From Omnitrophica bacterium RIFOXYB12_FULL_50_7 (GTDB lineage Bacteria > Omnitrophota > Omnitrophia > Omnitrophales > Aquincolibacteriaceae): 34,425 bases of DNA. The position numbers were made by a program, and so were the translations under genes. The notes beneath the pieces were generated by a model, which made no database searches, had not been told where the DNA came from, and saw nothing but the letters and a program-made list of their open reading frames with translations. The DNA lies in assembly GCA_001804345.1 (NCBI GenBank), contig MHFU01000056.1, positions 11,034-45,458 on the forward strand, read 5' to 3'. The number at the start of each line of letters is the position of its first letter. Position 1 is the stretch's first letter. Shown one piece after another: positions 1,480-31,800 of this stretch.

Positions 1480-1544
1480 GCGTAGCGTTTTGATTCCTTG
1501 ACCGTTTTGTCTGAAATAAATAAACTCTAGCGCGCTTTGCGCGC

Positions 1545-1603
1545 GGGGAACGATGAACGGGAAACGGCGAACGAAAAGCGTTAACCGTTCCCCGACGTTT
1601 GCC
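1545..1603. repeat. Imperfect inverted repeat built from tandem heptamers (GGGAACG-type arms)
   Basis: Left arm GGGGAACG ATGAACG GGAAACG GCGAACG, loop AAAAG, right arm CGTTAAC CGTTCCC CGACGTT. Its core closely resembles the element at 20765-20829. Confidence 0.6.
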
Positions 1604-6998: not shown

Positions 6999-9623
6999 AT
7001 GAACCCGTTTAATTTCTACGGCTCTCAATTCCTTGCTTTTTATGCGGCTCTTTTAGTGATTCTCAGCATCGGGATCATTTATTGGCGGAATATCAAGGAA
7101 TCCTCTTCAGAATCATCACAGAATAATCTTACCGATCCCTATCTTATAGCTTATCTTCGTGGCCGCTGCAACGAGGCGTTGCGCGTGGCGGTTATTGCTC
7201 TCATTGACCGAGGGCTTTTGAAGGTTGACGAAAAAGCCAAGGGGTTGTTTAAAAAGGAATACAAATTAGAAGTGACGAAACAATCCGCGGGTAATTTTGT
7301 CAATCGACCCATTGAAAAGGCGATTATCAAAAAATTCGAGAAATCAGACAAGGCGACAGCTGTCTTTAATGATTCCGAACTTGTTTCGGCCTGCGAGGAT
7401 TACGAAAACGAATTAACGCGCCTGGGGCTGCTCCCGGATGAGGATGTTAAATGGATAAGAATGAACGGCTTTGTTTTTTCGCTTCTTATCGCCTGGGGAT
7501 TCGCGCTCACAAAGATTGTGATCGCTTTGAGCCGGGGGCGGCACAATATTATTTTTCTAATCATACTGGCCGTAGCCTACTCTTTTCTGGCTTACCGGAT
7601 CGCCAACCCTTTCAGGACAAAAAAAGGAGATCGCGCGGTAAGAGATCTGAAGCAGTCATTTTCGGGGCTGAAAGAGAGGGCGAAATCGATTCGTCCGGGT
7701 GGCGTTACCAATGAAGCCGCTCTGCTTGCAGCGGTTTTTGGACTGTCGCTGCTTCCGGCCACAGCTTATCCTTACGTGAAAAAGATGTATCCCAAGGCTT
7801 ATTACTCTCAATCAAATTGGTCATCGAGCTGCGGCAGTTCCGGATGTGGTTTTGGTACTGCCTGTGGTTCGGGGACTTCATGCGGGAGCGGCGGAAGTTG
7901 CGGCGGAGGTGGATGCGGGGGCGGCTGTGGCGGTTGCGGAGGGGAGCCGATGAAAAACCATGTCATTCTTTGCGGTCTTGGGCATATCGGTTTTCGGATT
8001 GCCGAACTTCTTTTGCGCCTTAATGAGCAGGTATCCATCATTACCGACAAGACCAAAGGCGAGTGGAAAGATCAAATAGAATCTAAGGGAATCCAGATTA
8101 TTATCGGAGATGCGTCCGATGACCGACGGCTTATCGAGGCCGGCATTCGGGAGGCTAAAGCCCTTATTGCTGCCACAGACAATGACCTCATTAATGTTTC
8201 GGTAGCTTTGGATGCCAAACGCTTAAATCCCAAGATCAACGTTGTAGTCCGGTTGTTTGATCAGCTGTTAGCTCAGCGTCTGGAGCAACACCTTGATGTC
8301 CGGAAGGTATTCAGCACCTCTCTTTTAGCTGCACCGGAATTTGCCGCGGCTGCTCTCGGCGATGAAATCTTGAGTTCTTTCCAGGAGGGTGATTCCCGTT
8401 TCACGCTTGGTCGTTTTCATGTCGATTCCATAGCCGCCTCTAAATATGCGACGGTAGAAGAGCTCGAAGTGAAAGAAAACGTTGTGGTCATCACACGCCA
8501 AGGTAAAGAGCCGACGATAGGCCAGGTTCAAAAGAAGGATCATGTAGCTGCGGGAGATGATCTTTTAGTTTTAGATACAGCTACGGCGCGTTTTTTGAAA
8601 CCGACCGACGCTCAAAAGCAAAGAATGCGAAGGTCCCGTGCCCTGAATATTGGGGAATCTTTTTTCAAAACGTTTTCCTTCTCTACCTGGATTATTTTCA
8701 CAACGCTTGTTTTGATCGTTTTGATCAGCACCGCGCTTTTTGGGCGCGTTTTGCAGCTGGATCCCGTTACCGCTTTGTATTATGTCATCACAACCATTAC
8801 AACGACGGGGTATGGCGACATCAATTTACTGAACGCCGGCCCCTTTGTTAAACTTTACGGGTGCTTCCTAATGCTTTGCGGCGCCGCCTTTCTTGCGGCC
8901 CTTTTTGGCACGATCACAAACTTTTTCGTTCAAAAACGTCTCGAGCAATTCTTTGGAAAGCATACGGTCCCAAAATCGGGGCATATTGTTGTCATAGGCT
9001 CGGGAAATATCGGCTACAGGGTGATCCAGGAGCTGATCGTGGCTGGTCAGGAAGTCGTCCTGGTCAACCAGGAAGAGAAAGACGAATCGGTCCAGTCCTG
9101 CCGTGAGCTATGTGCCGTTGTTTTGGGAAGCGTTAAGACTCAGGATGTGCTTCTGAAAGCGAACATTACTACTGCGAAAACGATCCTTGCGATTACCGAA
9201 GACGATGTTGCTAATTTAAGTGTGGGGCTCACGGCGAAGGAAATTAATGCGAAGGCCAGGGTCGTGCTCCGGGTTTTTAACCCCGCCCTCGCTGCTAAAG
9301 CCCGCGGCATTTTGAATGTTGATGCAATCCTGAGCACCTCTATGATCTCGGCGCCCGCTTTTGTAGGGGCAGCGCTGTATCCCGATGTGAAAAGCGCAGT
9401 TGTGTCGGGTAATAGTTTGATCCTTTGCCATCACCATGTAATTTCGGAGGGTTCATCGGGGGCGGGGAAAACCTTGTTCGAAATCGGCCAGGGCGAAGAT
9501 CAAAGATGTCTTTTGATTAAAAAAGCCGGGGGAAAATTTGAGCGCGTGAGCCATGATTCGAGAATCAGCGCTGGGCAGGAATGGATCTCCGTCCGGATCA
9601 AACCGCTTACTCCTGTTAAATAA
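6999..9623 (+). CDS. Fusion ORF: TIGR04222-like membrane domain, Cys/Gly-rich tract, RCK-flanked K+ channel
   Basis: N-terminus has DPYLIAYLRGR plus TM helices. The Cys/Gly tract is followed by MKNHVILCGLGHIG (TrkA-N Rossmann), two TM helices around the selectivity filter TTTGYGD, and a second TrkA-N (VVIGSGNIGYRV) with a TrkA-C-like end. Confidence 0.8.
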   Translation: MNPFNFYGSQFLAFYAALLVILSIGIIYWRNIKESSSESSQNNLTDPYLIAYLRGRCNEALRVAVIALIDRGLLKVDEKAKGLFKKEYKLEVTKQSAGNFVNRPIEKAIIKKFEKSDKATAVFNDSELVSACEDYENELTRLGLLPDEDVKWIRMNGFVFSLLIAWGFALTKIVIALSRGRHNIIFLIILAVAYSFLAYRIANPFRTKKGDRAVRDLKQSFSGLKERAKSIRPGGVTNEAALLAAVFGLSLLPATAYPYVKKMYPKAYYSQSNWSSSCGSSGCGFGTACGSGTSCGSGGSCGGGGCGGGCGGCGGEPMKNHVILCGLGHIGFRIAELLLRLNEQVSIITDKTKGEWKDQIESKGIQIIIGDASDDRRLIEAGIREAKALIAATDNDLINVSVALDAKRLNPKINVVVRLFDQLLAQRLEQHLDVRKVFSTSLLAAPEFAAAALGDEILSSFQEGDSRFTLGRFHVDSIAASKYATVEELEVKENVVVITRQGKEPTIGQVQKKDHVAAGDDLLVLDTATARFLKPTDAQKQRMRRSRALNIGESFFKTFSFSTWIIFTTLVLIVLISTALFGRVLQLDPVTALYYVITTITTTGYGDINLLNAGPFVKLYGCFLMLCGAAFLAALFGTITNFFVQKRLEQFFGKHTVPKSGHIVVIGSGNIGYRVIQELIVAGQEVVLVNQEEKDESVQSCRELCAVVLGSVKTQDVLLKANITTAKTILAITEDDVANLSVGLTAKEINAKARVVLRVFNPALAAKARGILNVDAILSTSMISAPAFVGAALYPDVKSAVVSGNSLILCHHHVISEGSSGAGKTLFEIGQGEDQRCLLIKKAGGKFERVSHDSRISAGQEWISVRIKPLTPVK
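7821..7943 (+). other. Low-complexity Cys/Gly/Ser tract (12 Cys in 41 aa) inside the fusion ORF
   Basis: Translation is SSSCGSSGCGFGTACGSGTSCGSGGSCGGGGCGGGCGGCGG. Confidence 0.9.
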
Positions 9624-15199: not shown

Positions 15200-16177
15200 A
15201 TGATCACAAGTTTTTTTTATAAAAAAGGCGGAGAAATCGAAACGAATCTTTCCCGGGCACGGCTTCTTTCCGCGTTGAGCGAAAAAGGGGGGCTTCTCTG
15301 GGTTGATCTGGAGGAACCCAGCGAATTTGAGAGCGATTCCTTAGTCGAGATCTTCAACTTTCACCCTCTGGCGGTCGAAGACTGCATGACCGACCAATCT
15401 CAACCCAAGCTCGACGACTACGACGAGTATCTTTTTATGGTCGTTCACGCGATCGCCATGCACGACAAAGGCTCGAAAAGAGAGCTTCGAACCGTAGAGC
15501 TTGATATATTTATCGGTGAGAATTTCGTCGTTACCTTCCACAAGGAGCCTCTGGCGAGCGTGACCCAGGTACGCGAGCTTGTGCAAAAAAAGACCTCAGC
15601 GTTGATGGGGAGCGGTCCTGGCCTGCTCGTGCACTCCCTTCTGGATCATTTGGTCGACCGGTACCTTCCGGTTCTGAATGAATATGACGAGAAGATAGAC
15701 TCTCTTGAAAAAGAAATGTTTCGTCACACCACGAAAGATTTTCTGAAGACGTTGCTTCAGGTCAAACAAGACGTTTTTCATCTGCGGCGGATCGTGGGGC
15801 CTCAGAGGGACACTCTTTATTCTCTGACGCGCGATTCCAGCGCTTTTATCCGGACGGAACATTTGATGTATTTTCGCGACGTCTACGATCACCTTTTCAG
15901 GATCTACGGTATGGCCGAGGCATATCACGAGAACCTGAACAACATCCTGCAGGTCTATTTTTCGTATTCCTCTTTCCGGCTCAATGAAGTCCTGAAACAT
16001 TTGACCGTTTTGGCGACTGTCACCATGCCGCCCGTCATTATCGCGAGCATTTACGGCATGAACTTCAAACATTTTCCGGAGCTGGAATGGGCGCTGGGCT
16101 ATCCGTTCGCCATCGGTCTTTGCGTGCTCTCCTCCCTTGTCACGCTTGTCTGGATGAAGTTCAAGAAATGGATCTAG
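15200..16177 (+). CDS. corA: CorA family magnesium/cobalt transporter
   Basis: 325 aa. YGMNF signature (IASIYGMNFKHFPE) followed by a final TM helix and a basic tail. Confidence 0.9.
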   Translation: MITSFFYKKGGEIETNLSRARLLSALSEKGGLLWVDLEEPSEFESDSLVEIFNFHPLAVEDCMTDQSQPKLDDYDEYLFMVVHAIAMHDKGSKRELRTVELDIFIGENFVVTFHKEPLASVTQVRELVQKKTSALMGSGPGLLVHSLLDHLVDRYLPVLNEYDEKIDSLEKEMFRHTTKDFLKTLLQVKQDVFHLRRIVGPQRDTLYSLTRDSSAFIRTEHLMYFRDVYDHLFRIYGMAEAYHENLNNILQVYFSYSSFRLNEVLKHLTVLATVTMPPVIIASIYGMNFKHFPELEWALGYPFAIGLCVLSSLVTLVWMKFKKWI

Positions 16178-16249
16178 CGACGCACAACGAGCAACGAACA
16201 ACACGCATCATGCGACGCAAAGACAAGGCGTTGCGCGTTGACCGTTGAG
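16178..16249. repeat. Heptamer-built inverted repeat (CAACG-type), no cargo
   Basis: Starts directly after the corA TAG. Left arm CGACGCACAACGAGCAACGAACAACACGC, 21-nt loop, right arm GCGTTGCGCGTTGACCGTTGAG. Confidence 0.65.
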
Positions 16250-16262
16250 TAAAAAATCCCCC

Positions 16263-17342
16263 ATGAAAGCTTTATACGGTTCAACTTCCGACGAAATAGA
16301 AACTTTTGTCATAGCCCAAGGCCTTCCCAAATACCGCGCAGCCCAGATCCTGGATTGGATCTACCAGAAGAATGTCCTCGCCTGGGACGAGATCAAGAAC
16401 CTCCCGAAAGACGCCCTCCAAAAACTTTCCGGAGAAATCCGCCTTACCGCCCTTGAACCCGGAGAGGAAAAAAAAGCGGTGGCCGGAGGGCCGACAAAGT
16501 TTCTTTTCAAAACCCCGGATGGACATTTTCTTGAAAGTGTTTTGATCTCGCAAAAGGACGCCCCCGATTCCCGGGAAGGCGAGGAGACAATTCCTCAGGG
16601 GAGGCGGGAGACCGTGTGCGTTTCAACGCAGCTGGGATGCAAGATTCAATGCGCGTTTTGCGCGAGCGGTCAGGGGAAGTTCACCCGCAACCTCACGGCC
16701 GGCGAGATCGTCGAACAGGTCGCAAGAATCAGTCGGATGACAGGAAAAAAGATCACGAATGTTGTTTTTATGGGGATGGGGGAACCGCTCGATAATTATG
16801 AGGCCACGCTCAAGGCGGTCCGTATCTTGATCGAGCCCTGGGGGTTCGCTTTCGGAGCGCGAAGAGTCACGGTCTCGACCTCCGGGATTACCCCGAAGAT
16901 CCTGGAATTTGTAAAAGCCGTGGACGGGCGCGTCCGGCTTTCCGTGTCACTCCATTCCTCGATCGACGAAGTTCGCAGCTCTCTTGTTCCGATCAATCAA
17001 CGTTACCCTCTCAAGGAGCTTGTGAGTGCTTTGAGGAGGATCAATCAGGACCTGAAGCGCGAGATCACGTTCGAATACACGCTAATCGCTGGCGTGAACG
17101 ATTCCGACGAAGAGGCTGAGGGAATTGCCATGATCGCAAAACCCCTTCGTGCCAAGATCAATGTTATTCCTTATAACCCGATCGCGGAATTCCCGCACAA
17201 AGCGCCTACACCCGAAGCAACAGAGCGTTTTTGCGACCAGCTTGAGAGGCGCGGCCTTCGCGTGACGCTCAGGCAGACGGTGGGCCGCGACATTGATGCC
17301 GCGTGCGGGCAGCTCCGGTTGGACAGAATGTCCGCCCGGTAG
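16263..17342 (+). CDS. rlmN: 23S rRNA/tRNA A2503-type C2 methyltransferase, radical SAM
   Basis: YRAAQILDWIY N-terminal motif, CVSTQLGCKIQCAFCASG cluster, GMGEPL, C-terminal DIDAACGQL. I prefer ATG 16263 over the TTG at 16245. Confidence 0.9.
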   Translation: MKALYGSTSDEIETFVIAQGLPKYRAAQILDWIYQKNVLAWDEIKNLPKDALQKLSGEIRLTALEPGEEKKAVAGGPTKFLFKTPDGHFLESVLISQKDAPDSREGEETIPQGRRETVCVSTQLGCKIQCAFCASGQGKFTRNLTAGEIVEQVARISRMTGKKITNVVFMGMGEPLDNYEATLKAVRILIEPWGFAFGARRVTVSTSGITPKILEFVKAVDGRVRLSVSLHSSIDEVRSSLVPINQRYPLKELVSALRRINQDLKREITFEYTLIAGVNDSDEEAEGIAMIAKPLRAKINVIPYNPIAEFPHKAPTPEATERFCDQLERRGLRVTLRQTVGRDIDAACGQLRLDRMSAR

Positions 17343-17373
17343 CGCAACGCGCAACGGTCAACGCTCAACGGTC
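17343..17373. repeat. Left arm of CAACG-type heptamer inverted repeat
   Basis: CGCAACG CGCAACG GTCAACG CTCAACG GTC, starting immediately after the rlmN TAG. Overlaps the stop and last two codons of the four-helix-bundle gene. Confidence 0.65.
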
Positions 17374-17895
17374 TACCTTTTTGTTTAAACTGATGACCAT
17401 CCGCGTTAAATGGTCGACCTCTTCCAGCAAAAAAGACTTGTTTTCATTGGCAAAATAATTTAACTCACTCGAAACAATGATTTGAGTCTCGAGTTCTCCC
17501 AAAGAACCCAGGGCGATATTTAAGAACTGCTGAAATTCCTTAGCGTGCCTGCGGCGATACCCTTCCGCGATGTTCGAAGGAATTGAAACAGCGGCCCGTC
17601 TCATTTGCGCTACAAGGCCATAAATCTCCTCCCTCGGAAAGGCGCTCGTTTTTTGATAGATCATTTTTACCAGAGAAATACCCTTTTGCCATATTGCAAG
17701 ATCTCGGAACGACTTTACCACTTTTTGCGACAAATGTTGTTTTTCGGCGCCGCTTTCTTTGGGAGACAGATTTTTTTGTTGGTTTTCGATGAAGCTCGTC
17801 TTTTCTTCGTTCCATCGTCGGGGCTTATCGTATGGAGAAGGGTTGTTGCGGTGAGTGTTGGGCGTTGCCCGTTGTCCTGAAGTGTTGTTTTCCAT
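17365..17895 (-). CDS. Four-helix-bundle protein (23S rRNA intervening-sequence protein / Avd-like family) with N-terminal extension
   Basis: FRDLAIWQKG...MRRAAVSIPSNIAEGYRR....F..FLNIALGSLGELETQ is the characteristic family signature. About 60 aa of low-complexity extension lies upstream. Confidence 0.85.
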   Translation of the reverse strand: MENNTSGQRATPNTHRNNPSPYDKPRRWNEEKTSFIENQQKNLSPKESGAEKQHLSQKVVKSFRDLAIWQKGISLVKMIYQKTSAFPREEIYGLVAQMRRAAVSIPSNIAEGYRRRHAKEFQQFLNIALGSLGELETQIIVSSELNYFANENKSFLLEEVDHLTRMVISLNKKVDR

Positions 17896-17912
17896 CTTTT
17901 GTTTCTCCTTTT

Positions 17913-19607
17913 TCAGTTCGTTGCGCGTTGTGCGTTGAACGTTGCGCCGTTTTCTTCATCCGAGGATTGATAAAACCATAACTTATTAAACAAGGGCCTT
18001 TTCTCATAAATCCGTTCCAGCCTTTTCGAAAAAAACCCATCCGTTATTGCGTCTAAAAGAGATGTGAGTTCGTCCATGCGCAAAAGATTTTCAAGGTGCT
18101 CCTGTTCGGAGACGGGCGGCGTGAAGACGAGGTCGATCTGAAGGCGCCGGCGCTCGTAATAGATGCGTGTGGCTTCAGAGAGGAGGTCATTGCGGAGCTC
18201 CACCATGAGTTTCTCGCGTGAGTCGATCGAGGTTTGATCAGAACTGTAAACCATGTCGCCAAAGTCCCAGCTGACGTCCGCGTCCCAACCTTTGCCCACA
18301 TCTTCAGGTCCCGTGATGTACTTGCCGCTGTAAGTGCTGATGGAGGTGCTACGATCCAGGTTTTTACCGAACGAAAAGGTCGGCAAAAATCCTGCGAGCC
18401 TTGATTCGGCATGCCAGCGGCGGATCTTGCCGTTCGCGACATCAGCGTATTGAATGACGCATTTGTGAACTTCTCGAGCCGACGGTTCAAGCGCGAGGAG
18501 TTCTTTAAAAAGCGCGAGAGTTTCTTCGGGGGGTTGATAAAGTGTTACACTCGGGCCGGCTTCCGGCACAAACGCGTCAAGGGGGTACTGCACAAAACCC
18601 TCTTCGGTGATCGCAATCAGTTTTTCTTCGTTCAGCACGGCAATGCCTTGCGTGCGGTCTTTGGCTAATCCTTCAAAGAGACCCGTCCATTTTTGCGTAC
18701 GAGCCTCGTAAGCATAAACACCGCGAGGGGTTGCCGCATAAAGAAGCCCTTTTTTTTCTGAATAAGCGAGTTGATAAATAACAGGACTTTGCAAACCGCT
18801 TCTGGAAAGGGGTTCCCAGCGATGCCCGCCGTCGAGGCTTTGAAAGACACCGTTTGTGGTTGCAAGGAACAGTTCCTGCGGGTTGCGTTTCGAGACGAGC
18901 AGATCGTGGATCTTCAGATCAAAAGAGAGCGATTCTTCGGGGGGTTCCGAGTTCTCCTTGTCTGTGGCAGGGGTCTCCGTGCTGGTTTTTGAAAGATCGA
19001 GGACAGGATGCGCGGAACCCTCAGGCAGCGCGAAATAAAGAGTTTTTTCATCCGCCAAGAAAATCCGGTCATGGTCGAAGAGCAAAAGGGGGATGGGACC
19101 TGATGCGTGGAAGATAGCGGAGGGAGCCCAGGTACCTCCGGCGTTCTGTGTTTCCCAAAGGCCCTTTTGGGTTCCCAGGAACCAGCGGTTGGGATCTTTG
19201 GGGTGGACCGCGAAAGCGAGAGGATTTTTTTGGGTGTCTTTGTAGACCACGCGCCAGGAACGGTCTTTCAGGTTTCCCATAAAAACGCTTCGGCTCGTGA
19301 TCGCGAAAACAATGTCCGGCAGAACACCGAAAGAAAAGAGTCGCTTGATCGGCGCGGCCGCGTCGGTTTGGGACCAAAGAGGCTGCCACAAACTCCCCCT
19401 TCCGTTTTCAAAAATTTTATGTCCCGATGCGAGGAGAAATTTCGTCGGATCGAGAGGATGGATAGCGAGGCAGGTGAGGGCGCCGCCAGTCATGGACGGC
19501 TGAAGGGGCTTCTGCCATTCAGCCGGGGCCGGCATTTGAAATCCCAAGAAGCAGAGAAGCGATAGTGTGGCGCCCCAGACGATTGTTTTCTTGTTTATTT
19601 TCAACAC
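17913..19607 (-). CDS. Secreted protein with BNR/Ycf48-like beta-propeller repeats plus an unassigned C-terminal domain
   Basis: GTG start with a GGAGG RBS. Signal peptide KKTIVWGATLSLLCFLGF. Repeated G..W motifs (NAGGTWAPS, DGGHRWEPL, GRGSLWQPL). Confidence 0.55.
   Translation of the reverse strand: MLKINKKTIVWGATLSLLCFLGFQMPAPAEWQKPLQPSMTGGALTCLAIHPLDPTKFLLASGHKIFENGRGSLWQPLWSQTDAAAPIKRLFSFGVLPDIVFAITSRSVFMGNLKDRSWRVVYKDTQKNPLAFAVHPKDPNRWFLGTQKGLWETQNAGGTWAPSAIFHASGPIPLLLFDHDRIFLADEKTLYFALPEGSAHPVLDLSKTSTETPATDKENSEPPEESLSFDLKIHDLLVSKRNPQELFLATTNGVFQSLDGGHRWEPLSRSGLQSPVIYQLAYSEKKGLLYAATPRGVYAYEARTQKWTGLFEGLAKDRTQGIAVLNEEKLIAITEEGFVQYPLDAFVPEAGPSVTLYQPPEETLALFKELLALEPSAREVHKCVIQYADVANGKIRRWHAESRLAGFLPTFSFGKNLDRSTSISTYSGKYITGPEDVGKGWDADVSWDFGDMVYSSDQTSIDSREKLMVELRNDLLSEATRIYYERRRLQIDLVFTPPVSEQEHLENLLRMDELTSLLDAITDGFFSKRLERIYEKRPLFNKLWFYQSSDEENGATFNAQRATN
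17916..17949. repeat. Right arm of CAACG-type heptamer inverted repeat
   Basis: GTTCGTT GCGCGTT GTGCGTT GAACGTT GCGCCG, about 80 percent complementary to 17343-17373 unit by unit. It encodes the C-terminal tail NGATFNAQRATN of the 17913-19607 gene. Confidence 0.65.
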
Positions 19608-19719
19608 GGTTAGGCCTCCTTTTATTCATTATTATCATATAATATATTCATATTTCGTAAAAATGTCAATGTTTTCTCGTGTTTTATTTAAAATACGTCC
19701 TATAAATGAGCCTTCTCCC

Positions 19720-19748
19720 TTGTAAAAGTCCAACAAGGAGGTTATATT
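19720..19748 (+). promoter_or_regulatory. Possible sigma70 promoter for the giant ORF
   Basis: TTGTAA, 17-nt spacer, TATATT within a 285-nt AT-rich divergent intergenic region. AT-rich context makes chance matches likely. Confidence 0.3.
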
Positions 19749-19893
19749 TTCGGAATTATGAGATTTTAGTTTTGGAGAGGTTTCTATTCTGTAAAACTAA
19801 AAATATTCATTTAAAAAGAAGCAAGACTGCAATTTAACGCTTTGCAAAAGATAGTTGTTTGAGAGCAAGCCATTCTTCTCTCCCGCTCGGATC

Positions 19894-22800
19894 ATGAGGA
19901 AGCAAACGCCCAGAAACAAAAAAAGGAACCATAAAGAAAAAATGAGGGAGATTTCTAGTTTCAAGCGAACCATCAGCCTGATCATCGCTGTTTGTTTTCT
20001 GACAACGAATGCGATGGCTATGCCTGGTCAGGAAGCGTGGCTCGGGGAACGTGGAACGGGGAACGTATTCGGATCGAAAGATATTCTCTCGCTTTCTATG
20101 CCCTCGTCTCTTGGAACCGTTGTTGAAACTTATCGTGTGGAACAAAAAAACAGGCGTGGCACCCGTTTCCCGTTCACCGTTTCCCGGCACGACCCCATGG
20201 TCGTGTACATTCAAGACGCGCACGACTCCCTCGAAGCCCAGGAAAATATTGCTGGGATGGTCAAGTATCTTACGGAGCAGAAAGGCGTGCGGACAGTCTA
20301 TGAGGAAGGCTATGAAGGCCCGGTCCCCTCTGACCAACTCTTTGGAAACATCCAAGACACGACGCTTAAAGAAAAACTCTCCTATTACCTCATGGACAAA
20401 CTCCGCGTCAGCGGTGCTGAGTATGCGCACATTAACCGACTAGCGGATAGGGTACAGGGTATAGGGTATAGGAAAAACAAAAACAGTGAAGACCTATCCC
20501 TTAAACCCTATCCCCTAAACCCTGATTGGCAATTAATCGGTGCGGACTCGATCGCACTCCATCTCGAAAACATCCGGGCCTACGAACAAAGCGCCAAGAA
20601 ACGCGGGGATATTACCAAGGACATCCAGCGGATCCGCAAAGAACTTCAAAGGATCATGGACCGGAATTTTCCGAAAGAAATCAAACGGTGGATGGAGTTG
20701 CAGAGACGTTATCAGAATGGCCAATTACCGCTGATGGAATATTTACGCAGAACTTATTTGCTGTGGGAAACGGGAAACGGGAAACGGGCAACGAAAACGT
20801 TCAGCGTTCCCCGTTCCCCGTTCCCCGGGATCGGGGCCCTCTTTTCCGGCGATGAAAAAAAAATCAAACAGATCGATCTTGTGAAGCTGATGAGCGAGAT
20901 TCGCCAGCTCGAGGAAGAGGTGGTCGGAAAAGGACTTCCCGGGGATAGCGACCGGAAAACTTACGGGTATTATCAAAGCGTCCTACTTCTCGAAAAACTC
21001 AACGCGATCCAATTGAGTGCTGAGGAATATGCGGCACTCAAGGAATCACTTGAAAACCTCAAGACAGAAGATCTCGCTCAATTCATTGCCCGTGAAACGG
21101 GTCGGTCGATCGTGCTGTTCCGCTCCTGGGAAGATCTCATTACGGATTCGATCAATTTTTATGAGCTCGCGAAGAAACGTGACGAGGCTCTCGGGAAAAT
21201 TTTAGGGGATAGCGTAGAGGGTATAGGGTATAGGAAAAACAAAAACAGTGAAGATCTGCCTCCTAAACCCTATCCCCTAAACCTTAATGCTTCCATTTTG
21301 GTTTTTGGGGGTTTCCACAAAGAAGCCATCAAAAAGATCCTGAAAGAAAAAGGAATCTCGTACGTCATCCTTTCCCCATCCATTACCTCACCGAGCAAGC
21401 GGCATGAGGATTATTATCAGATGCTGATGAGCGGTGGAAAACACGCTTTCGAAACGCCTTCGGGCTTTTCGAAAAGACCACAGTCCCAATTCCAATCAAT
21501 TGAAGCGAATCGGAAATTGGGGCAGCCCCGACTACCATTCATTAAAAGAAATCAAAAGTTGGGACAGACCAGAGACTATAGACTAAAGACCAAAAGCCTC
21601 CTCTCCCCGCGGGAGAGGGAAGGGGTGAGGGGGAAAAGTCTCCAGTCTCCAGTCTCTAGTCTCCAGTCTGGCGGGAAGAGCGGTAGCGATTCACGACAAA
21701 GCATCGCCCGCGAAAGCACCTGCCCGCAGCGTGCTGTTGCAATGGATTACGCGCCCGTGATGGACCATCTCGCCGAAACCGGCGCGCCATTCCGTTCCGA
21801 AACCCGGGCGAATTTTATTTTGAAAATGGACCACGCCCTGTCGGACGAGCACCAGATTGCACCCTACAAACACCCGGGATTTGTAGGGTCAAACGAGAGC
21901 GCCCGCGCGGAGGTGCGGTCTGAAGTTCGATTGGGATTTCCGCCACTTGCAAAAAAATATCAACGATACATTGCCAAGCATGATTTAGATGCGCGGCCGG
22001 TACAAGCACAGCTGATTCATCCTGCTTTAGTCGGTCACGATATGGCCCAGAAGGACGTCATCAATCCCAATGACAAAGAACTTGCGGCGCTTGTTGCGGG
22101 TCCTAATGTTGATATTTCGAAAGTTTTACTCATGAGCAACGCGACGAAAGCTTTCTTTGTGGGGCATCGTCTGGGATTTCTTAAAGCTGATCGATTGCGG
22201 GATCGCCTCACGGCAACGGATTGGGAAAAACCTATTGAGCTGGAAGAGTATCGAGATCACAAATTCCGTACAGGCAGGGCACCGCTATACGAAGGCGTTA
22301 TTAAGGATGCTGAAACTGCCATTCTTATGGAATTACAAGCAATGCAAGTTGAGAAATCCAGCATTCAAATCTTTGATGATGCTGGAGCTAATGACGGCAA
22401 ACTCGCTGTAAGGATTCGCTTTCAATGGGCTTATCACAATCGCAAAGAGCGGGAATATGAATTTACGTTCTTTGATCATGATATTGAGCAAGGAAACTAC
22501 CCGCCGCTTTTAGAACAAGCGCTTAAAGAGAAAATAGACGTTTATCTTCAGTGGGCGCCTGGAACTCTGAGCGAAGCGTACCGCTATTTTCTGAGGCGCA
22601 TTTTGCCTGCGCTGCGGGAGGGTGGGCATATGGTTACGGATGATCGATATTACCATTCGTTTCTGAATGATGTGATTCATTACAGTATTTGTCCTTTTCT
22701 TGAGGATGATGATTCTAATTGGCAAGCGCGAGGTGTGAAAACGCAACCTTTCCAAAATGACTTTTTTATATTCGCGGCGCAAAAGGGAAACGACGGCACT

Positions 22801-25800
22801 TGGTTTGAACGCATCAGAACCATTTTAAAGTGGACCCTTTTGGAACCCTTCGCAGCGCCATTGCTTAAAGCTATTCAAGCGATTCAGGAAGCCTGGAATC
22901 AATGCTTAAGCAATTATTATCATCGGAATGCACATTCTGGTGATCCGCGCCAAAGGCAAAGAGCTCGATGGTCTCTGAAATTGCCCCTCCATTTCAACTG
23001 GATAAGACATTTTGATCTCAGTCGAAATTTTCATTTATATGGGTGGAATGTCCAAATCAGTCAAAAACAAGGGCCCAAGAGTGTGCGCTATCGTAAGCTG
23101 CCACGCGCAGGATACAAAGATCTAAAAGCGCTCAATCTTCATTTCGGAAAAAATCCTCGAAAAACTATGGAAAAAAGCACCTTGTGGGCAGGGGGCGCAG
23201 CCATTTTATTTTCTGCGGCTATGTATTTTGCAAATGCTGTTTCTGATAATGTAAGCTTTCTTTTCTGCGTGCCATTTTTATCTTCAATCGAATTTTTATT
23301 TTTAGCTCTAACATATATTTTCACGCTTCATTTTCTCCCTCAAGTTATTTATTGTTTTGATACGGAACGACGATATGACGCGTTCTCGCCCGGAACGCAC
23401 AGCCGAATTTATCATCCTGAAAACTACAACAATCTTGAATGGCTCCAACACAAATTTGGCGTGGCCCCGCAGGACCTTCGTGAGGCCTACCATGCCATGA
23501 TAGAAGATGTTTATGAGCGGTTAGTCAATCGCTCGATCACGACCGAGGTATTAACACTAGGTTTCTATGAAGATACGAAGGATTATTTGGAACAAGAAAA
23601 AAAACCTCCCTTCGCTCAAGCGGATATTGATATAGCAAGAAAGCGTTTGTCTATCTATATCAAGGAGAAAGATCCCATAAGACGCAAGCTAAGTTTTGAC
23701 CCGGATCATTTGGAGGCAATGAAAGTCATTGGCCGTAAAGAAGATGGCTCGCAAACACTAGATATTATTCCCTTTATCGCAGGGCAAACAGGAGTTCCCC
23801 TTACTCAGACGTTTAAAGAGTTGCTTCATTCAGCCGAGGCGGGGGGCATGGCTCTTCGCAGACAAGGGAAAGAAAAAATCGTTCTTCTTAAAGAGGCTGA
23901 TGATATTTCGATCTTGACCATTGATAAAAAAGGCAAAGTCTTCGTCTCGGGCGTCAGCCGTGGCGGGACTATTTTGGACTATGCTGACGACAAAGTATTT
24001 TTGGAAGAAGGTGCGAAGCCTGTATTTTGTTATCACTCACATCCATGGGCCTCTCCCTTGACTGAAGAGAGAAGTCTTCCGCAAATACTTGCTCCCAGCG
24101 ATGCTGATGAACGGGGGATCGCAAAGATATCAAAAAAATTCCATAGAGCAATCCCTGAGATTATATGGGCTTATGATAGAGAAAAACACAGGCTGGTCGG
24201 ATGGTTTTATGAGCTAACGGGCGATGATTATGAAAAATTAAACAATCCAACAGAACTTACCGTCACTTTAGCAAAACAGCAGCAATTAGATTTCCAACAA
24301 ACACAACAACCGGATAGCGTCCTCACGGGAGGGGTCAGGACGGAAGCCCGCTCGGAAACGAGGGGAGGGAGTCTAAGGGGTTTTGCCGGTGGGGATATTG
24401 AGAAGGACGCTCGTAAGTTGGCGGCGGGGGATACGGCGGCTGGCGTCAAGGATCTCGATGCCGAACACCCGGCCGTTCTTGGCGATATCCATCATAATGC
24501 CGTCGGACACCTTGCGGGCGTGTTTGATCTTGCCCGTCTGGAACTGGATGTACAACGCATCCGCTTCCCGATCGAACGATATTTTCATAAGGAATTTTTA
24601 ACGGGCGGAGAGGAAATCTTCCCAGGACGTCTCGATGTCCTTGAGAATAGAATTCAAAAGCCCTTTTCCGAGATCTTCGCCTTTGTGAAAAGGAACTACC
24701 GTCGCGCGGCCGTCGGGATGGCGAAAATAAATATGACTGCCTTTCTGGCGGAGGCGTTCAAAACCGAGGCGGGTAAGAATGCGGATGACTTCGGAAGAGC
24801 GGAGAGGAATGAGGCGGGCCATCAGTTGACTTCGATCTCCTGGAGTCCGACAAAATCCATGGGCTTGAAGGAAGACCCCTCGACTTCAAGACATAACTGG
24901 ATGGCCTCTTTCATGCGGGGGATAAGAGTGGTAAGGGATTTTGCCTGCGTGTGGCATCCCCGCAGACTGGGGCACGATCCCACAAAGACACCGTCTTCGT
25001 CTTTTTCAATGATGACCATGAAATTTTTCTTGCGCATTTTTTCACCTCTTTCTGTCCCGGATGATATCCCGTCTCTTTTAGGAAGTCAAGGTTTCGCCAT
25101 GGCAGGAGGCGTTGGTACACCGATGGTTTCTCTATTATTAGCTCGTTCGGAAGCGCGTACCGATCAACCTGTCCCCTTGATGCCTGGTACCATTTCTAAG
25201 ACCCGGCTTTCCACCCTGGACACACCGGGTGTGGACAAGGGGGAGAAGCGTTCCGAGATGCGTGTGCCGAATGTTATGGGTAAGGAGCCGAGAGAGATTG
25301 TGATCCGATGGAGCTCTGAAACGGAAAGTACAGATGAAAAAAAACAACATGTCATTGCAGAAGTATGGGATCCGGCTCTGAAAGAACAATTCGGCGTTGG
25401 AGTGTTTTATGTTGAGGACCAAAAGATCAGGATATCGGCTTATTTTCCCATCGGTAAGATAGATGATCCTTCCGGAAAATGGTTCAGAAACAGAGGGAAA
25501 GGAATCTCTTCCACTTTTTTATTTTGGTTGAGCCATTTTGCCATGGCCAATGGCATACGGGAAATCTACATCCAAAGCGACAAGGCGATTAACATTCCGC
25601 TTTTTCGGAAATATTTTGCCGGTCAGTTTTGCCGTCACCCTCATGGAATGACGGAAGCAGAGGTTTGGCAGGATATGGAAAAGGTCGAAGACCCTGCAAC
25701 CGGCGAGGGGCTTTATTCGGAAGCAGTGTTAGGTGAAATAGGAATCGCCGATCTTGCGACCATGGAGATTACGGCTTATGTACGGCTTTCACGGCTTCCG

Positions 25801-28800
25801 GAGCCGGGCGGGCAGTATCGAGTGGATGGGGTGGAGGACAATGTAGAAAGGCTCAAGCAGTACGCTCGTGAAGACGGATTGAAAGAAAGCTCGGTAGTGG
25901 TGACCTTCCCGAAAGCTTTAAGGCCTGGAGCTTGGCTGGAAATCACCGAGAGAGGCATTGTGAAAATTGAAGGAAAAACCATAGGAATTATCAAAGTCGC
26001 AGCAGGGCCGCACTTTGCCGTGAAAGGGGTGCCACGTTTTCCGGAAGAATTGCGATCACTTTCCGAGAGCTTTTACCAAAAAGAAAACCTTCTATTACCA
26101 ATCTCCCAACCAGAAGACTCTAAAGTTCGCTCCGAGGCAAGGGCGGAACTGCGTTCGAAGGATTTCGAAGAATTTATCACCGGCATCGAAAAATTTGTTA
26201 AACATAAAATTTCAAGGCCGGCCCAGCGGGTATTTTGGAAAACGATTGGCTGGATGCATCGCTACCGTTATTACATCACTCCTGCAGTCGTGGCGATAAC
26301 CGCTCTCGCTTATTACATTTTTCTAAAAGTACAAAATTTTCACGAAAAGAACATCCAAAAACCTCTTCGCATTCAAGAGCAAAAGGATGTCCCGGATTCT
26401 TTTCCATCGAGTGGTGCAACGACTACCGAAAAAAAGTCCAGCCGTTCGGAAGCAAGAAACAATATCGCGCAACCACTTTCAACCTACGCGGTTGAAAGCG
26501 GTTCCCATCCTCGCTCGGAAGAGAGGCGGGACAATATTGAAATAGAAAAACTTTTTCCCGATGATGTTGAGGAGCTTCTAAAGTTTAGAGACAAATATTT
26601 TGTTCCCAGGATTGCCTTGGGACTTGAGAAAGCCAAATGGAAGGAAGTTTTTTACAATATCGCCTATGGAGTTCACACGGATCCGACCATGATTTATCTT
26701 GCCAATGATAAAGAAAAAATTGTGGGCTACGTCACGGCGACGGATTTTTCTTCCTGGGAGAAAAGAAAGGGTGAAGGATGGGTGGGCGAGTTTGCCGTGC
26801 ATCCCGAGTATGAAGATCAAGGACTCGGAACAAACCTTTTTGAAAAGGCGCTGGATTGGCTTAAGGAAAGGGAAGGAGTTCGCGTGATTAAACTGACGGA
26901 TGCCTCCGTCCCAGTAGAGATTGACGGCCAAATGGAGAGCCGGGTTGCCAAAATAGCTCAAAAGTTTGGGTTTGAACTTCCCCCAGGGGAGATAAACGAA
27001 TGGCAATTAGATTTGGGGAAGAGTTCTCAGGTGGACGAATCCGACGAAGACCGGATTTTTTTTGGTGATTGGGGCGATGAAGACGATGATAACGATGAGC
27101 GTTCCGAATTGCGCCGGCCTGTCGGTCAGACAGGGGCCCCCTCAAAATCAGGCGAGACAGCGGTCACAGAGTTGTTTAATGGAATACCTGACAACGAGCG
27201 CAAGCTGATCGGGCCTCAGATGAGGGACGTTATTTTTGGGGACTATAGCGACTTTCAGAGGCAGCTTTTCCGTTCGCAATCCCTTCTGCATATTTATCAA
27301 GAAAACCTTGTTGATTTTTTCCGCCTCCACAAAAAAGACTTTCCCGTTTTGCATCGATATCTCCAGACAATTATCAATAACACCACATACGAAAACTGCT
27401 TACCAACCAACGGCCTCGAGCTTTTGTTTTACCGTGTGGTGCGTGCCCGCTACAGCAAAATAGAGAAGCTTACGGACGCGAGTTTAAAGGCCTTTGACGA
27501 GATTTTGCCAGAATTTGTAAAAACAGTTTCGCTGATATTAGCGAACGCCTATGCAGGTAAAATTAAAACCTCGCCCGCGTTCCGGGAAGCCCTCTTTTTG
27601 AGGGAAGAGATTTTGTACCAAACAAATCCCGAAAAAATCCGGGACATCGGCCGCAGAGTGAAAGAAATTTCAACGAGTCCCTCATGGGATGACGATGGTG
27701 AAGCAAAAAAGCGGGCGGAATTGCGGGAAGAAGATAGAGCAACGGGCACTTCACTCGCCACAACGCGTTGGACGAATCCGCCAACCCTCGAACAGATCCA
27801 GACATTGCGGCAGTTGCAGGAACAGGCGGACATGACTCAGCGGGCATTTGCGAATGCAATCAGAACGCATGAGGCGACTCTCTCTAGGATAAAAGCCGGA
27901 AAAGAATCTGCTCGTTGGGCGGCAGTGCTTATCCAGAGGGCGAAAGAGATTCTCAGGGATAAATTGCAACAGGCGCAGATGCCGGCAACACCGGAACAAA
28001 TCAGGGAATTTCGATCCATTCGGGAGCGTCTGAAGCTTTCTCCGGAGCGGTTCCGGGAGCTTCTTGGGCTTTTGGAGCCCGGAGAGCTATCTTTCAAGAG
28101 AATGGAGGAGCTATTACTAAAAGCAAGGCGGTTGGTTCCGTCTTCTGAAAAAGTTCAAGAATTAATCCGTATCCGGGAAGAAAAAGGATTGAGTCGGCAG
28201 GAGCTGGCTGCCCTGCTAAAAATCCCGGCAGAAACGCTTCTTGCCGCGGAACGAGGAGAAATGATCGCTTCCCAGGTTAAAACTTTGCTCTTGAAACTTA
28301 AACGGAAAAAAGCGTTGCCCAAAGATCCCGATCCGGAAGCGCTGGAAGCCGGAAGACGGTTAAAAACAATACGGGAACAGCATTTCCCGGGTTTGACCCA
28401 GGCGCGATTTGGAAACATGATCAATCCGGACATGAAAAATCCACAGTCCAGCATTTCTATGGCGGAGCGAGGGTTCACCAGCAAGGAAAGGTTCGAGCGG
28501 TTTATTCGATTAGCCCAAGCCCATATAACCGCTCAACCGTCGACTGAAACCGGTCGCGAAATTCGCTCACCCGACAAAGACCCGGTCCTAGGACCGGGTC
28601 TTAGGAAGGGTGAAGGCCGTTCGGAAATTCGTTTTTCAAATTTCCGCACTGAGAGTGGCAAAGCCACCGTGCGTGCGGAGGTGCGTCGCCCCAAGAAGGG
28701 GGGCGGAAAACGGAGGGCAAAAGCTGTGACGCAAAGGAAATCCCAAAAGGCACTTTCTTTATATTCTTTCTTCGGACTTCTGGCAGCCGGAGGTCTTTTT

Positions 28801-31800
28801 CTGGTTGCAGAAAGATTTTTAAACACACCCCTTGAATCTGGCGAGAAAAAACCCGCACCGATCGGTTTAGTTTCCAAAACCGAACGAGCACCGCCTCAAA
28901 GCACGGAGTCTTCATCTGCTGAAAAAGTTGATCCCGTACCTTTTTTCACTCCGGAATCCTTACGAGAAATTTCTCTTGAAAAACTTATCCCGTTGTCCGC
29001 TTTACAGAACTCCTACTTTTGGTTCGATCTTCATTCCGGGGAAAAAGCCGGTGAGCGATTAGCTTCTTTTATCGAACGGATAGCGAAAGAAAAACAAGGA
29101 GCCGATATTTTCCGTATCCGGGTCGTTCGGGAAAATGGCTTTTCTCTTTTAGAAGTTAGAAAAAGAGTCCAAGTGTTGTTTGAAAGAGGAGAGATTTCCG
29201 AGGGTGATTTTAAATGGATAATGAATCTACGCGCTGAAGATTTTAACGATGGAGGAAAGAGAAAAAAAATCGAACGAATCGTTGCCCAGTGTGTGGAACA
29301 AGCCAACGGGGAATGGCCTAGCGAATACCCCTTGGAAAACAAAACTATCTCAGGTGCTACTTTAGAATTTGACCGGGAGCTCCTTGAAAGATTAATAACG
29401 AATGAAGCGTTGGGAAAGAAAATAGTTTTTGTTAATGAAACGGTTCATCTTGAGCCGACGCTTCTCCAGATGGAATATGAACTGCTCAGAGAACAGGCCG
29501 TCAAGGCGCTACTATTCGAAGTGGACGAGAGCCAGGTCTTTGTGGCCTATTTTTCGTTGATCAAGCGATCCATGCAGGCCAAGTACGAGTCACAGGAAAT
29601 TCGGGAAATGAACTATATCCGGGAAAAAATCCTGCCGTTGTTAAAAGATCCCCGACAGGACCAGGATGTTCATGTTTTTCCAAGAGGGACGCAACATTTC
29701 TTTTTACTCGAACATCTTTTCCCTCAGTTGATCGGGGCGCTTTCTTTGCAGCAGCTCTATTTGGTGGAACATGCTTGGGAATATTCCATGGCGGATGTGG
29801 AAAGGATCGGGTTAACGCGGTGGAGAGAAAAACGGTTGGCCGAGGACTTCAGCGAATCCGAGAAAGAAACGCTTCTCAAAGATGCTCTTCATCAACTACT
29901 TCTGATGGTCATGAAGCCGCTTTTTGCCAGCCCGAAGCAGTATGATCCCGAATTGTTTTCGAAAGCGAGCAACTCAGTGCTGAGAAATTTATCAGCCGAG
30001 CAGGTAAAGGAAATTCTAGAAGAGATCCGGTTGCTGAGCCAGCAGATGAAACCTTTACCGGAACCAGAGCAATTCTTTGGTATTTTGGGGTGTGTGACAT
30101 GGGCAAGAATTCAAGATTTGTTGCCGGGTGAATATCGCGATCAATTTATAAAAGTCATCATTGACCGCGAACCGGAACGGCTGAGGATCATTAAGGACCA
30201 TAAAACGGAAGTGAAACCTATTCTTTATTCCGTCCCGCTTGTCCCGCGCTCGGAATTGCGCCTGCCCGCCCAGGAGTCAGTGGCGGGGGCTGCCATTTCG
30301 CCGAAAGCAGAAGGCGATTCGCGCCTCTCAAAAGAAATTCTTAAATATCTTTTAAATTTAGAAAATGCGGCTAAGCGTCCCAATAGCGCTATTCGTCAAA
30401 CCGCTTTTACTATGCGCAGTACGATTCTTGCCGCCTTGGCCGATCAAGGGCGCCGGCTTCCATTGAAGAACAGAGTTTTTGAAACAACCGACGATTTTAG
30501 TATCCGTAACCGCCTGGCGGATTTTGCCGCGTCCATTGATCTTGCGATCACTCTCATCGAACAAGGCCAAACCCCCGACCTTGTTTTTGTTAAAAAGAAA
30601 CTTACTGACCGTGATCCGCGTATTCGCCAAGCCGCTTTTAAGGCCTCGGTTTCTCTTGCGGCGGCCTTGTTCAAAAAAAGTAAAAAACCCAATCTTTCTT
30701 TTTTGAAAAATGCATTACTTGATACGGATCCTTATGTTCGCGCCGATGGCCTTATCGCCTTTAGCATGATTACCGCCACTCTCATTGACCAGAAAAGAAT
30801 CAAACTCCCCGATCCTTACCTGGATGCTGTCGAAGCCGCTAAAGCTGTTGCGCGCACGGTTACAAATTCCTTCACGGATTATGGGCAACCCTCCGAGCCC
30901 TCTCTCTTTGATTTAGCACTTTTCGATAAAGCGACACCCATTTCTCAAGCGATTATTATTGCCCTTGGGAACATCGCGGCCGCTTTGATCAGACATGGCA
31001 GGATTTCCAGCCTTGTTTTTTTTATAGGGAGACTTACCGACCATGATCCGCGTATTCGCCAGGCCGCTGTTACGGCTTTTGGTACTATTACCTGCGCCCG
31101 TATTGACCAGGGTAAACCTCCTCAATTTTCTTTCTTTAATACAGTTCTCAAAGATCCTGATTCGGAAGTTCGCCAAGCCGCTGTCACGGCTTTAGGCGAT
31201 GTTGACACGGCTCTCGGCAAACGAGGCCCAATCCCCAATCTATCTTCTTTTGATACAGCTTTTAATGATTCCAACTCAAGGGTTCGAACGGCGGCCGTTA
31301 CTGCTTTCGGCGCTGTTGCGGCAGCTTCGATCAAGCATCAATACCGGATCCCTGAATTGTCTCTTTTTCATAAGGCCTTTGCTGACACTAATCCTGATGT
31401 TCGCAAAGCCGCTTTCACAGCTTTCAGCACTGTCGCCATTCGCTGCATTAACCAGGGGCAGACTCTTCCTGACCTTTCTCCCTTTAATAATGTTGAAAAC
31501 GATCCAGATGAAAGCGTTTACACGACAGCTCTTATCGCTTTTGATGCCATTGCCGCCGCTTCTATTAGGCGAGGCCAAAATCCTGATCTATCTCCTCTTA
31601 ATAAAGCCCTTTCTGATTTCAGCGGAGATGTTCGGGCTACCGCCCTTATCGCCTTCGGCGCTGTCAGTGCCAGCCGTATCGATCAAGGTCAAACTCCCGA
31701 CTTGTCTCTTTTTCAAAGGAAGCCCAAAGATACCGACCCGCGTATTCAGCAAGCCCTGCTCATTGCCTTGGGTGCTGTAACAGCGGCGGAGATCCGGCAA

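Follow-up and report, generated by a model that had tools for sequence, protein, structure and literature searches.

In-frame palindromic heptamer-repeat elements at recurrent sites in the N-terminal module of Omnitrophota giant genes

Introduction

Palindromic repeats that lie in frame in protein genes were reportedly described by Ogata et al. in 2000 as Rickettsia palindromic elements (RPEs), small insertions that are said to add an extra peptide at tolerated positions. These elements are 100–150 bp long, are set by a family consensus (RPE-1 to RPE-8) and not by tandem heptamers, and are dispersed among many genes that are unrelated to each other. PMC1779305 and PMC10969869 also refer to RPEs. 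Tandem repeats of 7-nt units have been described from Xanthomonas and Nostoc, in which GGGNATC arrays typically consist of approximately four units and about 40% form convergent inverted pairs able to fold into stem-loops (Rehm et al. 2015, PMC4692102). Such heptamer repeats are reported to be enriched outside genes and depleted within them (PMC4692102), and G-quadruplex formation by the four-tract G3N4 motif has been proposed for them. In Coxiella, the intervening sequence (IVS) of the 23S rRNA has a 28-bp terminal stem, which is cut by RNase III, and an S23p open reading frame (ORF) in its loop; two to three tandem GACAGAT heptamers are present on the 5' side, and their number varies among strains (PMC4990558). 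The distribution of IVS is sporadic, suggesting lateral spread. In the present analysis, six palindromic elements (E1–E6) in the N-terminal module of a giant ORF were studied in a stretch of 34,425 nucleotides from Omnitrophica bacterium RIFOXYB12_FULL_50_7 (phylum Omnitrophota; contig MHFU01000056.1, positions 11,034 to 45,458 of the forward strand), which is referred to as the window.

E1–E6 are probably selfish, hairpin-forming DNA repeats comparable to the IVS and to the cyanobacterial short tandem heptamer repeats (STRR), and are probably tolerated as translated loops. An initial annotation of the window, made from its letters alone, had recognised five of the elements. What goes beyond it is the phylum-wide, site-focused colonisation of one module and a likely general link to the IVS and to the protein encoded in its loop, the IVS protein (IVP). 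Two preprints deal with the giant genes of Omnitrophota, and neither mentions heptamers, palindromes or inverted repeats; one of them scanned the coding sequences of long genes for tandem nucleotide repeats, with heptamers and repeat periods unmentioned.

Elements in the giant open reading frame

Tandem Repeats Finder and a repeat search recovered the five elements of the initial annotation at the places given there. The region 20043–21671 consisted of five inverted pairs of tandem-heptamer arrays (E1–E5), all in frame in the giant ORF, and nine period-7 arrays could be detected in the first 1.7 kb of the ORF (Table 1). When arrays were counted at a fixed score, the window held four of period 7 and none of periods 4–6 or 8–12, against 0–0.1 in shuffled sequences. 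Matches to the unit patterns numbered 4–11 versus 0.06–0.26 expected. The STRR-like architecture that had been proposed, with tandem 7-nt units and few units per array, was borne out. The arms had also been described as imperfect reverse complements, and the repeat search revealed a complementarity of 83% in E1, 80–82% in E2, 85–89% in E4 and 80–81% in E5. E1 lies where it had been placed but is not a compact insert; its two arrays flank 95 nt coding for the conserved segment 'LSMPSSLGTVVETY'. The near-identity of E2 and E4 stood, with 88% identity over 86 nt, an identical 37-nt core and a distance of 762 nt (254 codons). None of the elements introduced a stop or a frameshift, as the initial annotation had stated, and the ORF stayed open to the window end. 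The peptides encoded by the inserts in the window included GERGTGN, GIGYRKNKNSEDL, ETGNGKRATKTFSVPRSPFPG and SLQSPVSSLQS.

Folding predictions placed every element below its dinucleotide shuffles, with z values of -2.4 to -6.5 on the better strand. E1 folded at -54.5 kcal/mol (z -3.1), E5 at -56.7 kcal/mol (z -4.5), and E2 gave z values of -3.6 and -3.1. On the minus strand, E3 paired without interruption over 22 bp, each unit contributing one G.U pair (-46 kcal/mol, z -6.5). One mismatch per unit appeared as A.C on one strand and as G.U on the other, and the elements therefore have a polarity. The best complement of the left arm of E1 was the right arm of E3 (96%), and the right arm of E1 matched the left arm of E3 at 92%. 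Such long-range complementarity arises whenever an imperfect palindrome is present twice with one copy reversed relative to the other, and a functional E1–E3 helix was set aside as trivial on this ground. The left arm of E3, GGGAAACGGGAAACGGGAAACGGG (20765–20788), matches the four-tract G3N4 motif, while most other units are not G-rich. As many units (GCGCAAC, GTCTCCA, CGTACGG) are of this kind, quadruplex formation cannot be the common principle. A search of positions 19700–21900 against Rfam returned no match to rRNA or any other family, and only sub-threshold matches to generic hairpins (microRNA precursors) were seen.

Further copies were present in other genomes as well as between the genes of the window, in contrast to the absence of further copies that would have spoken against a repeat element. 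Of the two non-coding palindromes, the one between the CorA and RlmN-like genes folded weakly (z -1.7 to -1.9).

Table 1. Positions of the elements and related features in the window
Feature	Position	Strand	Description
Period-7 arrays (Tandem Repeats Finder)	20046-20066, 20162-20186, 20447-20472, 20493/20502-20523, 20765-20793, 20805-20827, 21203-21234, 21573-21594, 21637-21669		
E1 left array	20043..20066	+	(GGGGAAC)x3 type; encodes GERGTGN; variable stretch after signal/anchor helix
E1 right array	20162..20187	+	(GTTTCCC)x3.5 type; encodes RFPFTVSR; indel hot spot between 'VEE' and 'YIQDAH'
E2	20441..20526		TAGGGTA-family palindrome, 27-nt loop; encodes ADRVQGIGYRKNKNSEDLSLKPYPLNP; inserted after conserved 'AEYAHINR'
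E3	20765..20829	-	GGGAAAC/GTTCCCC palindrome; E1 family, opposite orientation
E4	21203..21288		Direct copy of E2; inserted before conserved 'VLVFGGFH'
E6	21479..21566		In-frame palindromic element, ~85 nt, not heptamer-based; abuts E5
E5	21563..21671	-	AGACYAN/GTCTCCA arms with nested inner palindrome (CCTCTCCC..GGGAGAGG); disordered linker after module
Non-coding copy	1535..1595	-	GGGRAAC/GTTYCCC palindrome family, downstream of seryl-tRNA synthetase gene; z -3.5 on minus strand
Non-coding palindrome	16177..16248		GCGCAAC-like family (CGCACAA.. / GCGTTGC..), between CorA and RlmN-like genes
Gene-carrying form	17342..17947	-	(GCGCAAC)x4 and (GTTGCGC)x4 arms, 17342-17373 and 17919-17947
Host module	19942..21500	+	~510 aa, conserved N-terminal part of giant ORF, hydrophobic helix in front
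R-[S/A]-E-x-R sites in giant ORF	aa 618, 655, 1470, 1735, 1770, 2063, 2168, 2191, 2387, 2591, 2893, 2911, 3436, 4783		

Insertion sites in the module

A 27-sequence alignment showed gaps at the E2 and E4 sites in most of the 26 homologues, and a minority of homologues carried unrelated inserts at exactly these sites. The in-frame palindromic insertion that the initial annotation had likened to RPEs was thereby upheld, with sites that are either gapped or differently filled among homologues. When 79 modules were aligned, inserts of at least 6 aa clustered after residues 67, 170, 281–290, 371, 426 and 509 of the window protein. These indel hot spots coincided with four of the five elements (E2–E5) and with the right arm of E1. 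Inserts were found in 25 of the 79 homologues at the site of the right arm of E1, in 31 at the E2 site and in 23 at the E4 site, and arrays could be recognised in 16 homologues at each of the latter two.

The AlphaFold2 model of the module has a confident core, with 227 residues at a predicted local distance difference test (pLDDT) score of at least 90. Low-confidence segments comprise residues 25–48, 75–81, 170–192, 440–445 and 510–653, and these stretches match the left arm of E1, the right arm of E1, E2, E4 and E5/E6, respectively. A further dip in confidence at approximately 281–290 corresponds to E3, and residues 170–192 of E2 have pLDDT values below 50. The model thus places the elements in low-confidence loops between secondary-structure elements.

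Distribution and turnover across Omnitrophota

The comparison set consisted of 80 homologous loci from species-representative genomes (1.30 Mb), and all named ones were metagenome-assembled genomes (MAGs) of Omnitrophota; loci are numbered with the prefix L. This set held 74 period-7 arrays, compared with 0–2 for each other period between 4 and 12. With a slightly lower threshold, 111 arrays were counted, and 84 of them lay inside the module, which is about 1.5 kb long and amounts to 117 kb in total. The array density was 0.72 per kb in the module, 0.023 per kb in everything outside it and 0.011 per kb across the other 617 kb of these giant ORFs, so that the module exceeds the outside approximately 31-fold and the rest of the same giant ORFs approximately 60-fold. 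The offsets of the arrays formed four or five discrete peaks matching E1–E5. The elements are concentrated at about six recurrent sites across the phylum.

Module arrays were present in 28 of the 80 modules. Nineteen genomes carried them, usually in most of their paralogous modules, and 29 genomes had none, including one with six paralogues. The 19 array-positive genomes also had about four times more arrays outside the module than the 29 array-free genomes. The heptamer unit differed from genome to genome, and the same unit was reused across sites within a genome: CGTACGG at E1, E2 and E3 in L008 and L011, GGATGNC at E1, E2 and E3 in L013, and, in the window, GGGRAAC at E1 and E3 and TAGGGTA at E2 and E4. 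The arrangement of E1, in which arrays enclose conserved coding sequence, recurred in L008–L013 with other units.

The paralogous modules of Ca. Taenariivivens baikalensis share 50–60% DNA identity in their cores, whereas the element at the E2 site is 88–94% identical over 66 nt in three of the paralogues. As these elements are far more alike than the cores around them, a recent, site-directed spread is indicated. In the nearest relative of the window, at 71% core identity, the E2 element is unrelated to that of the window, and the arm family of E4 and the element E5 are common to both; L008 carries the same family as E4 at the E4 site. The elements are thus much younger than their sites, and the same sites receive the copies. 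Nested elements were seen in E5 and in L013.

Hot-spot inserts of at least 14 residues (n = 109) were scored by fold z. Values below -2.5 were obtained for 68% of the inserts with arrays, 48% of the inserts without arrays and 6% of the control segments. This series forms a gradient of decay, which fits elements that are not maintained one by one.

Some observations were made at the margins of the set. In L028 and L060, the inserts at the E2/E3 sites are of a different palindrome type, with peptides such as ...SLRGAERQSNPGAEIASLTSFARNDH... and ...PRNDVIASEAKQSQ...; we presume that this type is similar to a repeat that often appears, translated, in the spurious ORFs of other phyla. A metagenome contig of 0.66 G+C (L193, approximately 4600–4720) from an unrelated organism carries a GGGGAAC/GTTCCCC palindrome in frame, and thus in-frame heptamer palindromes occur beyond Omnitrophota. 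To judge from its conserved ATPase motifs only, the host of this palindrome looks like the linker between the ATPase halves of an ABC-type protein. A metagenome scan with (GGGGAAC)x3 returned more than 120 contigs of 0.35 to 0.76 G+C, none of them with the module, and the pairing control was weak. The scan shows that the unit is widespread and is a poor test of an association with the module.

Conservation of the DNA element and of the reading frame

The conserved entity is supported to be the DNA element and not the encoded peptide, as judged from the sequence comparisons that follow. In the window, members of the GGGRAAC family are found in either orientation (E1 versus E3). Among 30 module hairpins of other genomes, whose stems range from -25 to -65 kcal/mol, the sense strand folded better in 11 and the antisense strand in 18. 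Copies of E6 with 78–81% identity over 81–88 nt were found in L013 (two copies), L014, L017 and L046, and a partial match of 45 nt in L036; they sit in modules, upstream of modules and 6.5 kb downstream. In L013, E6 occupies two other hot spots and is read in a different frame, giving VPIPINLREAEIG... in place of the SQFQSIEANRKLG... of the window. The sequence P0002 contains a peptide nearly identical to that of E6 at a different place, and L014 has a composite of E6 and E5 elsewhere in the module. An E5 counterpart with 82% identity was present at the corresponding place in L008 and L009. With a DNA element conserved in both orientations and E6 translated in another frame, the alternative raised in the initial annotation, orthologues that share the peptides without palindromy, did not describe what was found.

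The TAGGGTA array offered a view of how the frame is kept open. Its sole unit with a would-be in-frame TAG reads CAG in E2 and GAG in E4, and the two copies have therefore lost this stop independently. Across the arrays, 7 of 84 units would give a stop triplet in tandem, against 19% expected. None of the 79 aligned modules had a stop, and a frameshift was found in only one of the 80 loci (L015). There, the frame changes exactly within the heptamer palindrome at the E2 site (1743–1827), and one additional 7-nt unit would restore it; possible explanations are an 'off' phase variant, a pseudogene or, as the contig has only 3.2 kb, a fault of the assembly. The copies seen are only those that are in frame and have lost their in-frame stops.

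Gene cassettes bracketed by heptamer arms

A gene-carrying form adjoins the module, approximately 2 kb upstream of the elements and between protein genes. Its arms pair at -40 to -42 kcal/mol and bracket a gene on the minus strand (17365–17895) for a 176-aa four-helix-bundle '23S rRNA IVS protein' (PF05635, E 6e-37; TIGR02436), which is also weakly similar to Avd, a protein of diversity-generating retroelements. The right arm of the cassette codes, in addition, for the C-terminal tail of a 564-aa gene. Syntenic IVP cassettes with different units were present in L009, L010, L012 and L013. In L010 (7395–8037), inverted GGGGAAC arms at 7395–7422 and 7982–8037 bracket the IVP gene, and in L012 an array is found on one side. 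The arms of the cassettes in the window (17913–17947) and in L010 encode the last 8–12 residues of the flanking convergent genes, with ends such as ...GATFNAQRATN and ...SSRGERGTGNG before the stop codon; the cassette has thereby rewritten two C-termini.

Three metagenome contigs that were picked up through their GGGGAAC array and contain an IVP gene (L203, L165 and L207) all had inverted arrays bracketing the gene. An independent sample of IVP genes, chosen by protein similarity only, was taken from annotated plasmids. Seven of the eight cyanobacterial plasmid genes had an adjacent heptamer array, all eight had flanks with heptamer units and approximately six had complementary arms on both sides, for example (AGTAGGG)7...(TCCCTAC)5, (AGGGAAC)4...(GTTCCCT)7 and (ACAGGTG)n...(CTGTCAC)4. 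As a control, 50 kb of one such plasmid contained nine arrays, and none of its 42 annotated genes was bracketed by a complementary pair. The IVP copies of Riemerella and Azospirillum showed the same build, with heptamer-like units in the arms of the Azospirillum copy (loci L208–L215, L217 and L218, including the cyanobacterial ones). We take the Azospirillum copy to be a 23S rRNA IVS, as its flanks look like 23S rRNA; the record is unannotated there. These comparisons suggest that STRR-type heptamer arrays may be the arms of IVP cassettes. In the library searched, no paper linking four-helix-bundle genes with STRR was found.

Interpretation and rival explanations

If E1–E6 are tolerated selfish repeats, as we consider probable, E1–E5 would be gene-less miniature versions of an element whose gene-carrying version lies 2 kb upstream. 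Their arms of three to four tandem 7-nt units would fall in the same architectural class as STRR, the inverted heptamers of Xanthomonas and the IVS stems, and it is through the parallels with the IVP/IVS and with STRR that E1–E5 are placed as gene-less miniature members of the IVS/STRR-type class. The elements have entered the module at a few loop-encoding positions, and their families turn over fast, differ from genome to genome and are copied between sites and between the paralogous modules of one genome. Judging by the conservation of the frame, the inserts would be translated as low-complexity, disordered loop extensions. They may be selfish or near-neutral DNA on which selection acts only to keep the frame open, and an essential function for the protein appears improbable because many homologues lack the elements. 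Their concentration in the module would reflect directed copying on top of tolerance, either through a preference for a site or structure or through gene conversion between the multi-copy modules. Candidate ideas for the module preference are insertion into pre-existing hairpins, gene conversion, and positive selection for loop variability.

Several points weigh against this interpretation. Tolerance alone is insufficient: the module exceeds the rest of the giant ORFs approximately 60-fold, and long disordered linkers are present in those ORFs too, so that some targeting or selection must exist. The DNA flanking the hot spots is strongly conserved only to the left of E2, so that flank-guided gene conversion is not a general explanation; homing by recombination at highly conserved flanks was likewise considered and is unsupported in general. 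In the closest relatives, the sites are occupied while the units change and the E1 arrays co-vary, which a selected structure would fit too. The exact 24-nt core of E2 and E4 had no match in a metagenome collection that evidently does not contain this organism. Domain scans of the ORFs in the window turned up neither a transposase nor a RAYT gene, no target-site duplication or defined termini were found and no direct repeat was present at the borders of E2 and E4. What speaks for translation of the inserts is the conservation of the frame only.

It is unlikely that the hairpins are instead selected cis-acting regulators of the giant gene, serving as RNase III targets, as pauses of transcription or translation after the signal/anchor helix, or as DNA cruciforms. 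The crowding of the arrays into the opening 1.7 kb of giant genes, with almost none in the remaining 617 kb, would suit such a role, as would the very stable stems (-25 to -65 kcal/mol), and RNase III cuts IVS stems that contain heptamer repeats (PMC4990558). The closest relatives also keep the sites and the complementarity while the units change, including the arms of E1. However, arrays are found in only 28 of 80 modules and genomes with up to six paralogues have none, which makes the hairpins dispensable, and the strand polarity relative to the mRNA is inconsistent (11 sense versus 18 antisense). The G.U polarity was examined as a sign of mRNA structure and rejected, since there is no consistent strand bias. 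Many inserts no longer pair, in line with the decay gradient, and the same sites are occupied by E6, which is not built of heptamers. Contingency loci, at which slippage by 7 nt would switch the giant gene off and on or turnover would diversify exposed loops, are quite improbable. Arrays of only three to four, often imperfect, units are few for efficient slippage, five independent assemblies are 100% identical, 78 of the 80 homologues are in frame, and the palindromic pairing plays no part in the model. In favour of the model are the unit length, which is not a multiple of 3, the location of the arrays near the 5' end of the ORF, the several copies of the gene family per genome, the rapid replacement of elements at fixed loops and the variable number of IVS units among Coxiella strains. 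The frameshift within the E2-site element of L015, which one unit would restore, is an anecdotal case in its favour.

The inverted arrays, lying 350–750 nt apart, might also be recombination sites for an intragenic inversion, in the manner of an inverton-like switch. The left arm of E1 and the right arm of E3 (96%) and the right arm of E1 and the left arm of E3 (92%) are complementary over a distance of 580–740 nt, and long-range partners at 88–96% are found in L010, L013, L017, L030 and L033. This is nevertheless very improbable: E2 and E4 are copies in direct orientation, no recombinase was detected when the ORFs of the window were scanned for domains, and the inverted arrangement was seen in none of the five assemblies. 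The plainest alternative does without any element at the DNA level and takes the arrays for ordinary low-complexity coding sequence or for an artefact of assembly. The peptides are indeed of low complexity, and the AlphaFold2 confidence is low there. Yet the enrichment is specific to period 7, non-coding and gene-bracketing copies exist, and the elements occur in both orientations and in different reading frames, while the five independent assemblies are identical and MAGs from many assemblies show these features too. This alternative is refuted on these grounds and is practically untenable.

Taking E1–E6 as tolerated selfish repeats, a wider proposal may be made, which we regard as tentative and, on balance, doubtful. 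The heptamer palindromes of STRR, of the 23S rRNA IVS stems and of the Omnitrophota inserts could form one widespread class of mobile elements whose autonomous form carries only the IVP. Multimers of this protein, perhaps a distant relative of Avd, would recognise the arrays and direct the copying of the hairpin, possibly via an RNA intermediate, into structured or pre-occupied targets. Gene-less copies would then home to approximately six loops of the leader module and continually rewrite them.

The finding means that hairpin repeats described as largely non-coding can be tolerated in frame and be enriched approximately 31-fold in one module, which implies a mechanism of targeting or copying. 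The heptanucleotide STRR arrays and the 23S rRNA IVS with its orphan S23p/IVP gene may be connected, and both become experimentally approachable. Alignments of the leader module are distorted by the inserts, as are its domain boundaries and predicted structures, and the inserts mark it as a conserved multi-copy unit that is worth functional study.

Host gene and other features

The giant ORF starts at an ATG at 19942 (plus strand) and is open for 4828 codons to the window end; a longer contig from this strain gives a product of 6749 residues. The first 653 residues have 46 homologues, and every named one belongs to Omnitrophota. The module matched no Pfam or NCBIfam family and no fold of the PDB at E <= 0.001. 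The region 19801–21900 is 100% identical in five independent assemblies of the strain, and the assemblies are thus uninformative on polymorphism. An antisense ORF of 198 codons (19834–20430, minus strand) runs across E1 and the beginning of the giant ORF, and is probably fortuitous.

In the giant ORF (window 21793–34302), 14 copies of the motif R-[S/A]-E-x-R were counted in the protein, while shuffles gave 0.34 expected with a maximum of 3. In 73 related ORFs (loci among L008–L087), 442 copies were counted versus 20 in shuffles. In the homologues, the motif marks the end of the N-terminal module, and the modules downstream of it are all different. The codons of the motif vary, which places the signal at the protein level, and it is a candidate module junction or processing site. 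One of the giant-gene preprints states the cleavage points of the giant proteins as unknown, and the junction motif offers a candidate for such processing sites.

Comparison with known systems

The closest resemblance is to the IVS of Coxiella, Leptospira and Azospirillum. As in these, a stem of terminal inverted repeats surrounds a loop, and the insertion lies in a functional gene product at tolerated surface positions; the cassette at 17342–17947 has the exact IVS build, with the IVP ORF in the loop. E1–E5 differ in that their loops of 11–95 nt contain no IVP ORF (PF05635/TIGR02436) and in that their host is a protein-coding ORF and not a helix of the 23S rRNA. For this reason they must keep the reading frame, and they are presumably translated and not cut out by RNase III. 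With STRR and the Xanthomonas and Nostoc repeats, the elements share tandem 7-nt units and few units per array, and GGGAAAC, GGGGAAC and GGGTATA are of the G3N4 type. In contrast to those repeats, the arrays described here are in frame, with 84 of 111 inside a coding module, and belong to a different phylum.

Miniature inverted-repeat transposable elements (MITE), repetitive extragenic palindromes (REP) and REPIN are likewise short non-autonomous palindromes with genome-specific families and a gene-carrying counterpart, a place that would be taken here by the IVP cassette, but the arms of the present elements are tandem arrays of variable number and not fixed terminal inverted repeats. Insertion in frame in an ORF, present or absent among orthologues, is common to the elements and RPEs. 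The heptamer arms, the focus on one module and the occurrence in Omnitrophota and not in Rickettsia set them apart by description. Membership in the RPEs is not supported, and the comparison is an analogy only, in that both would be translated in frame. The elements of the leader module can be regarded as a new variant among known element types and not as a new category.

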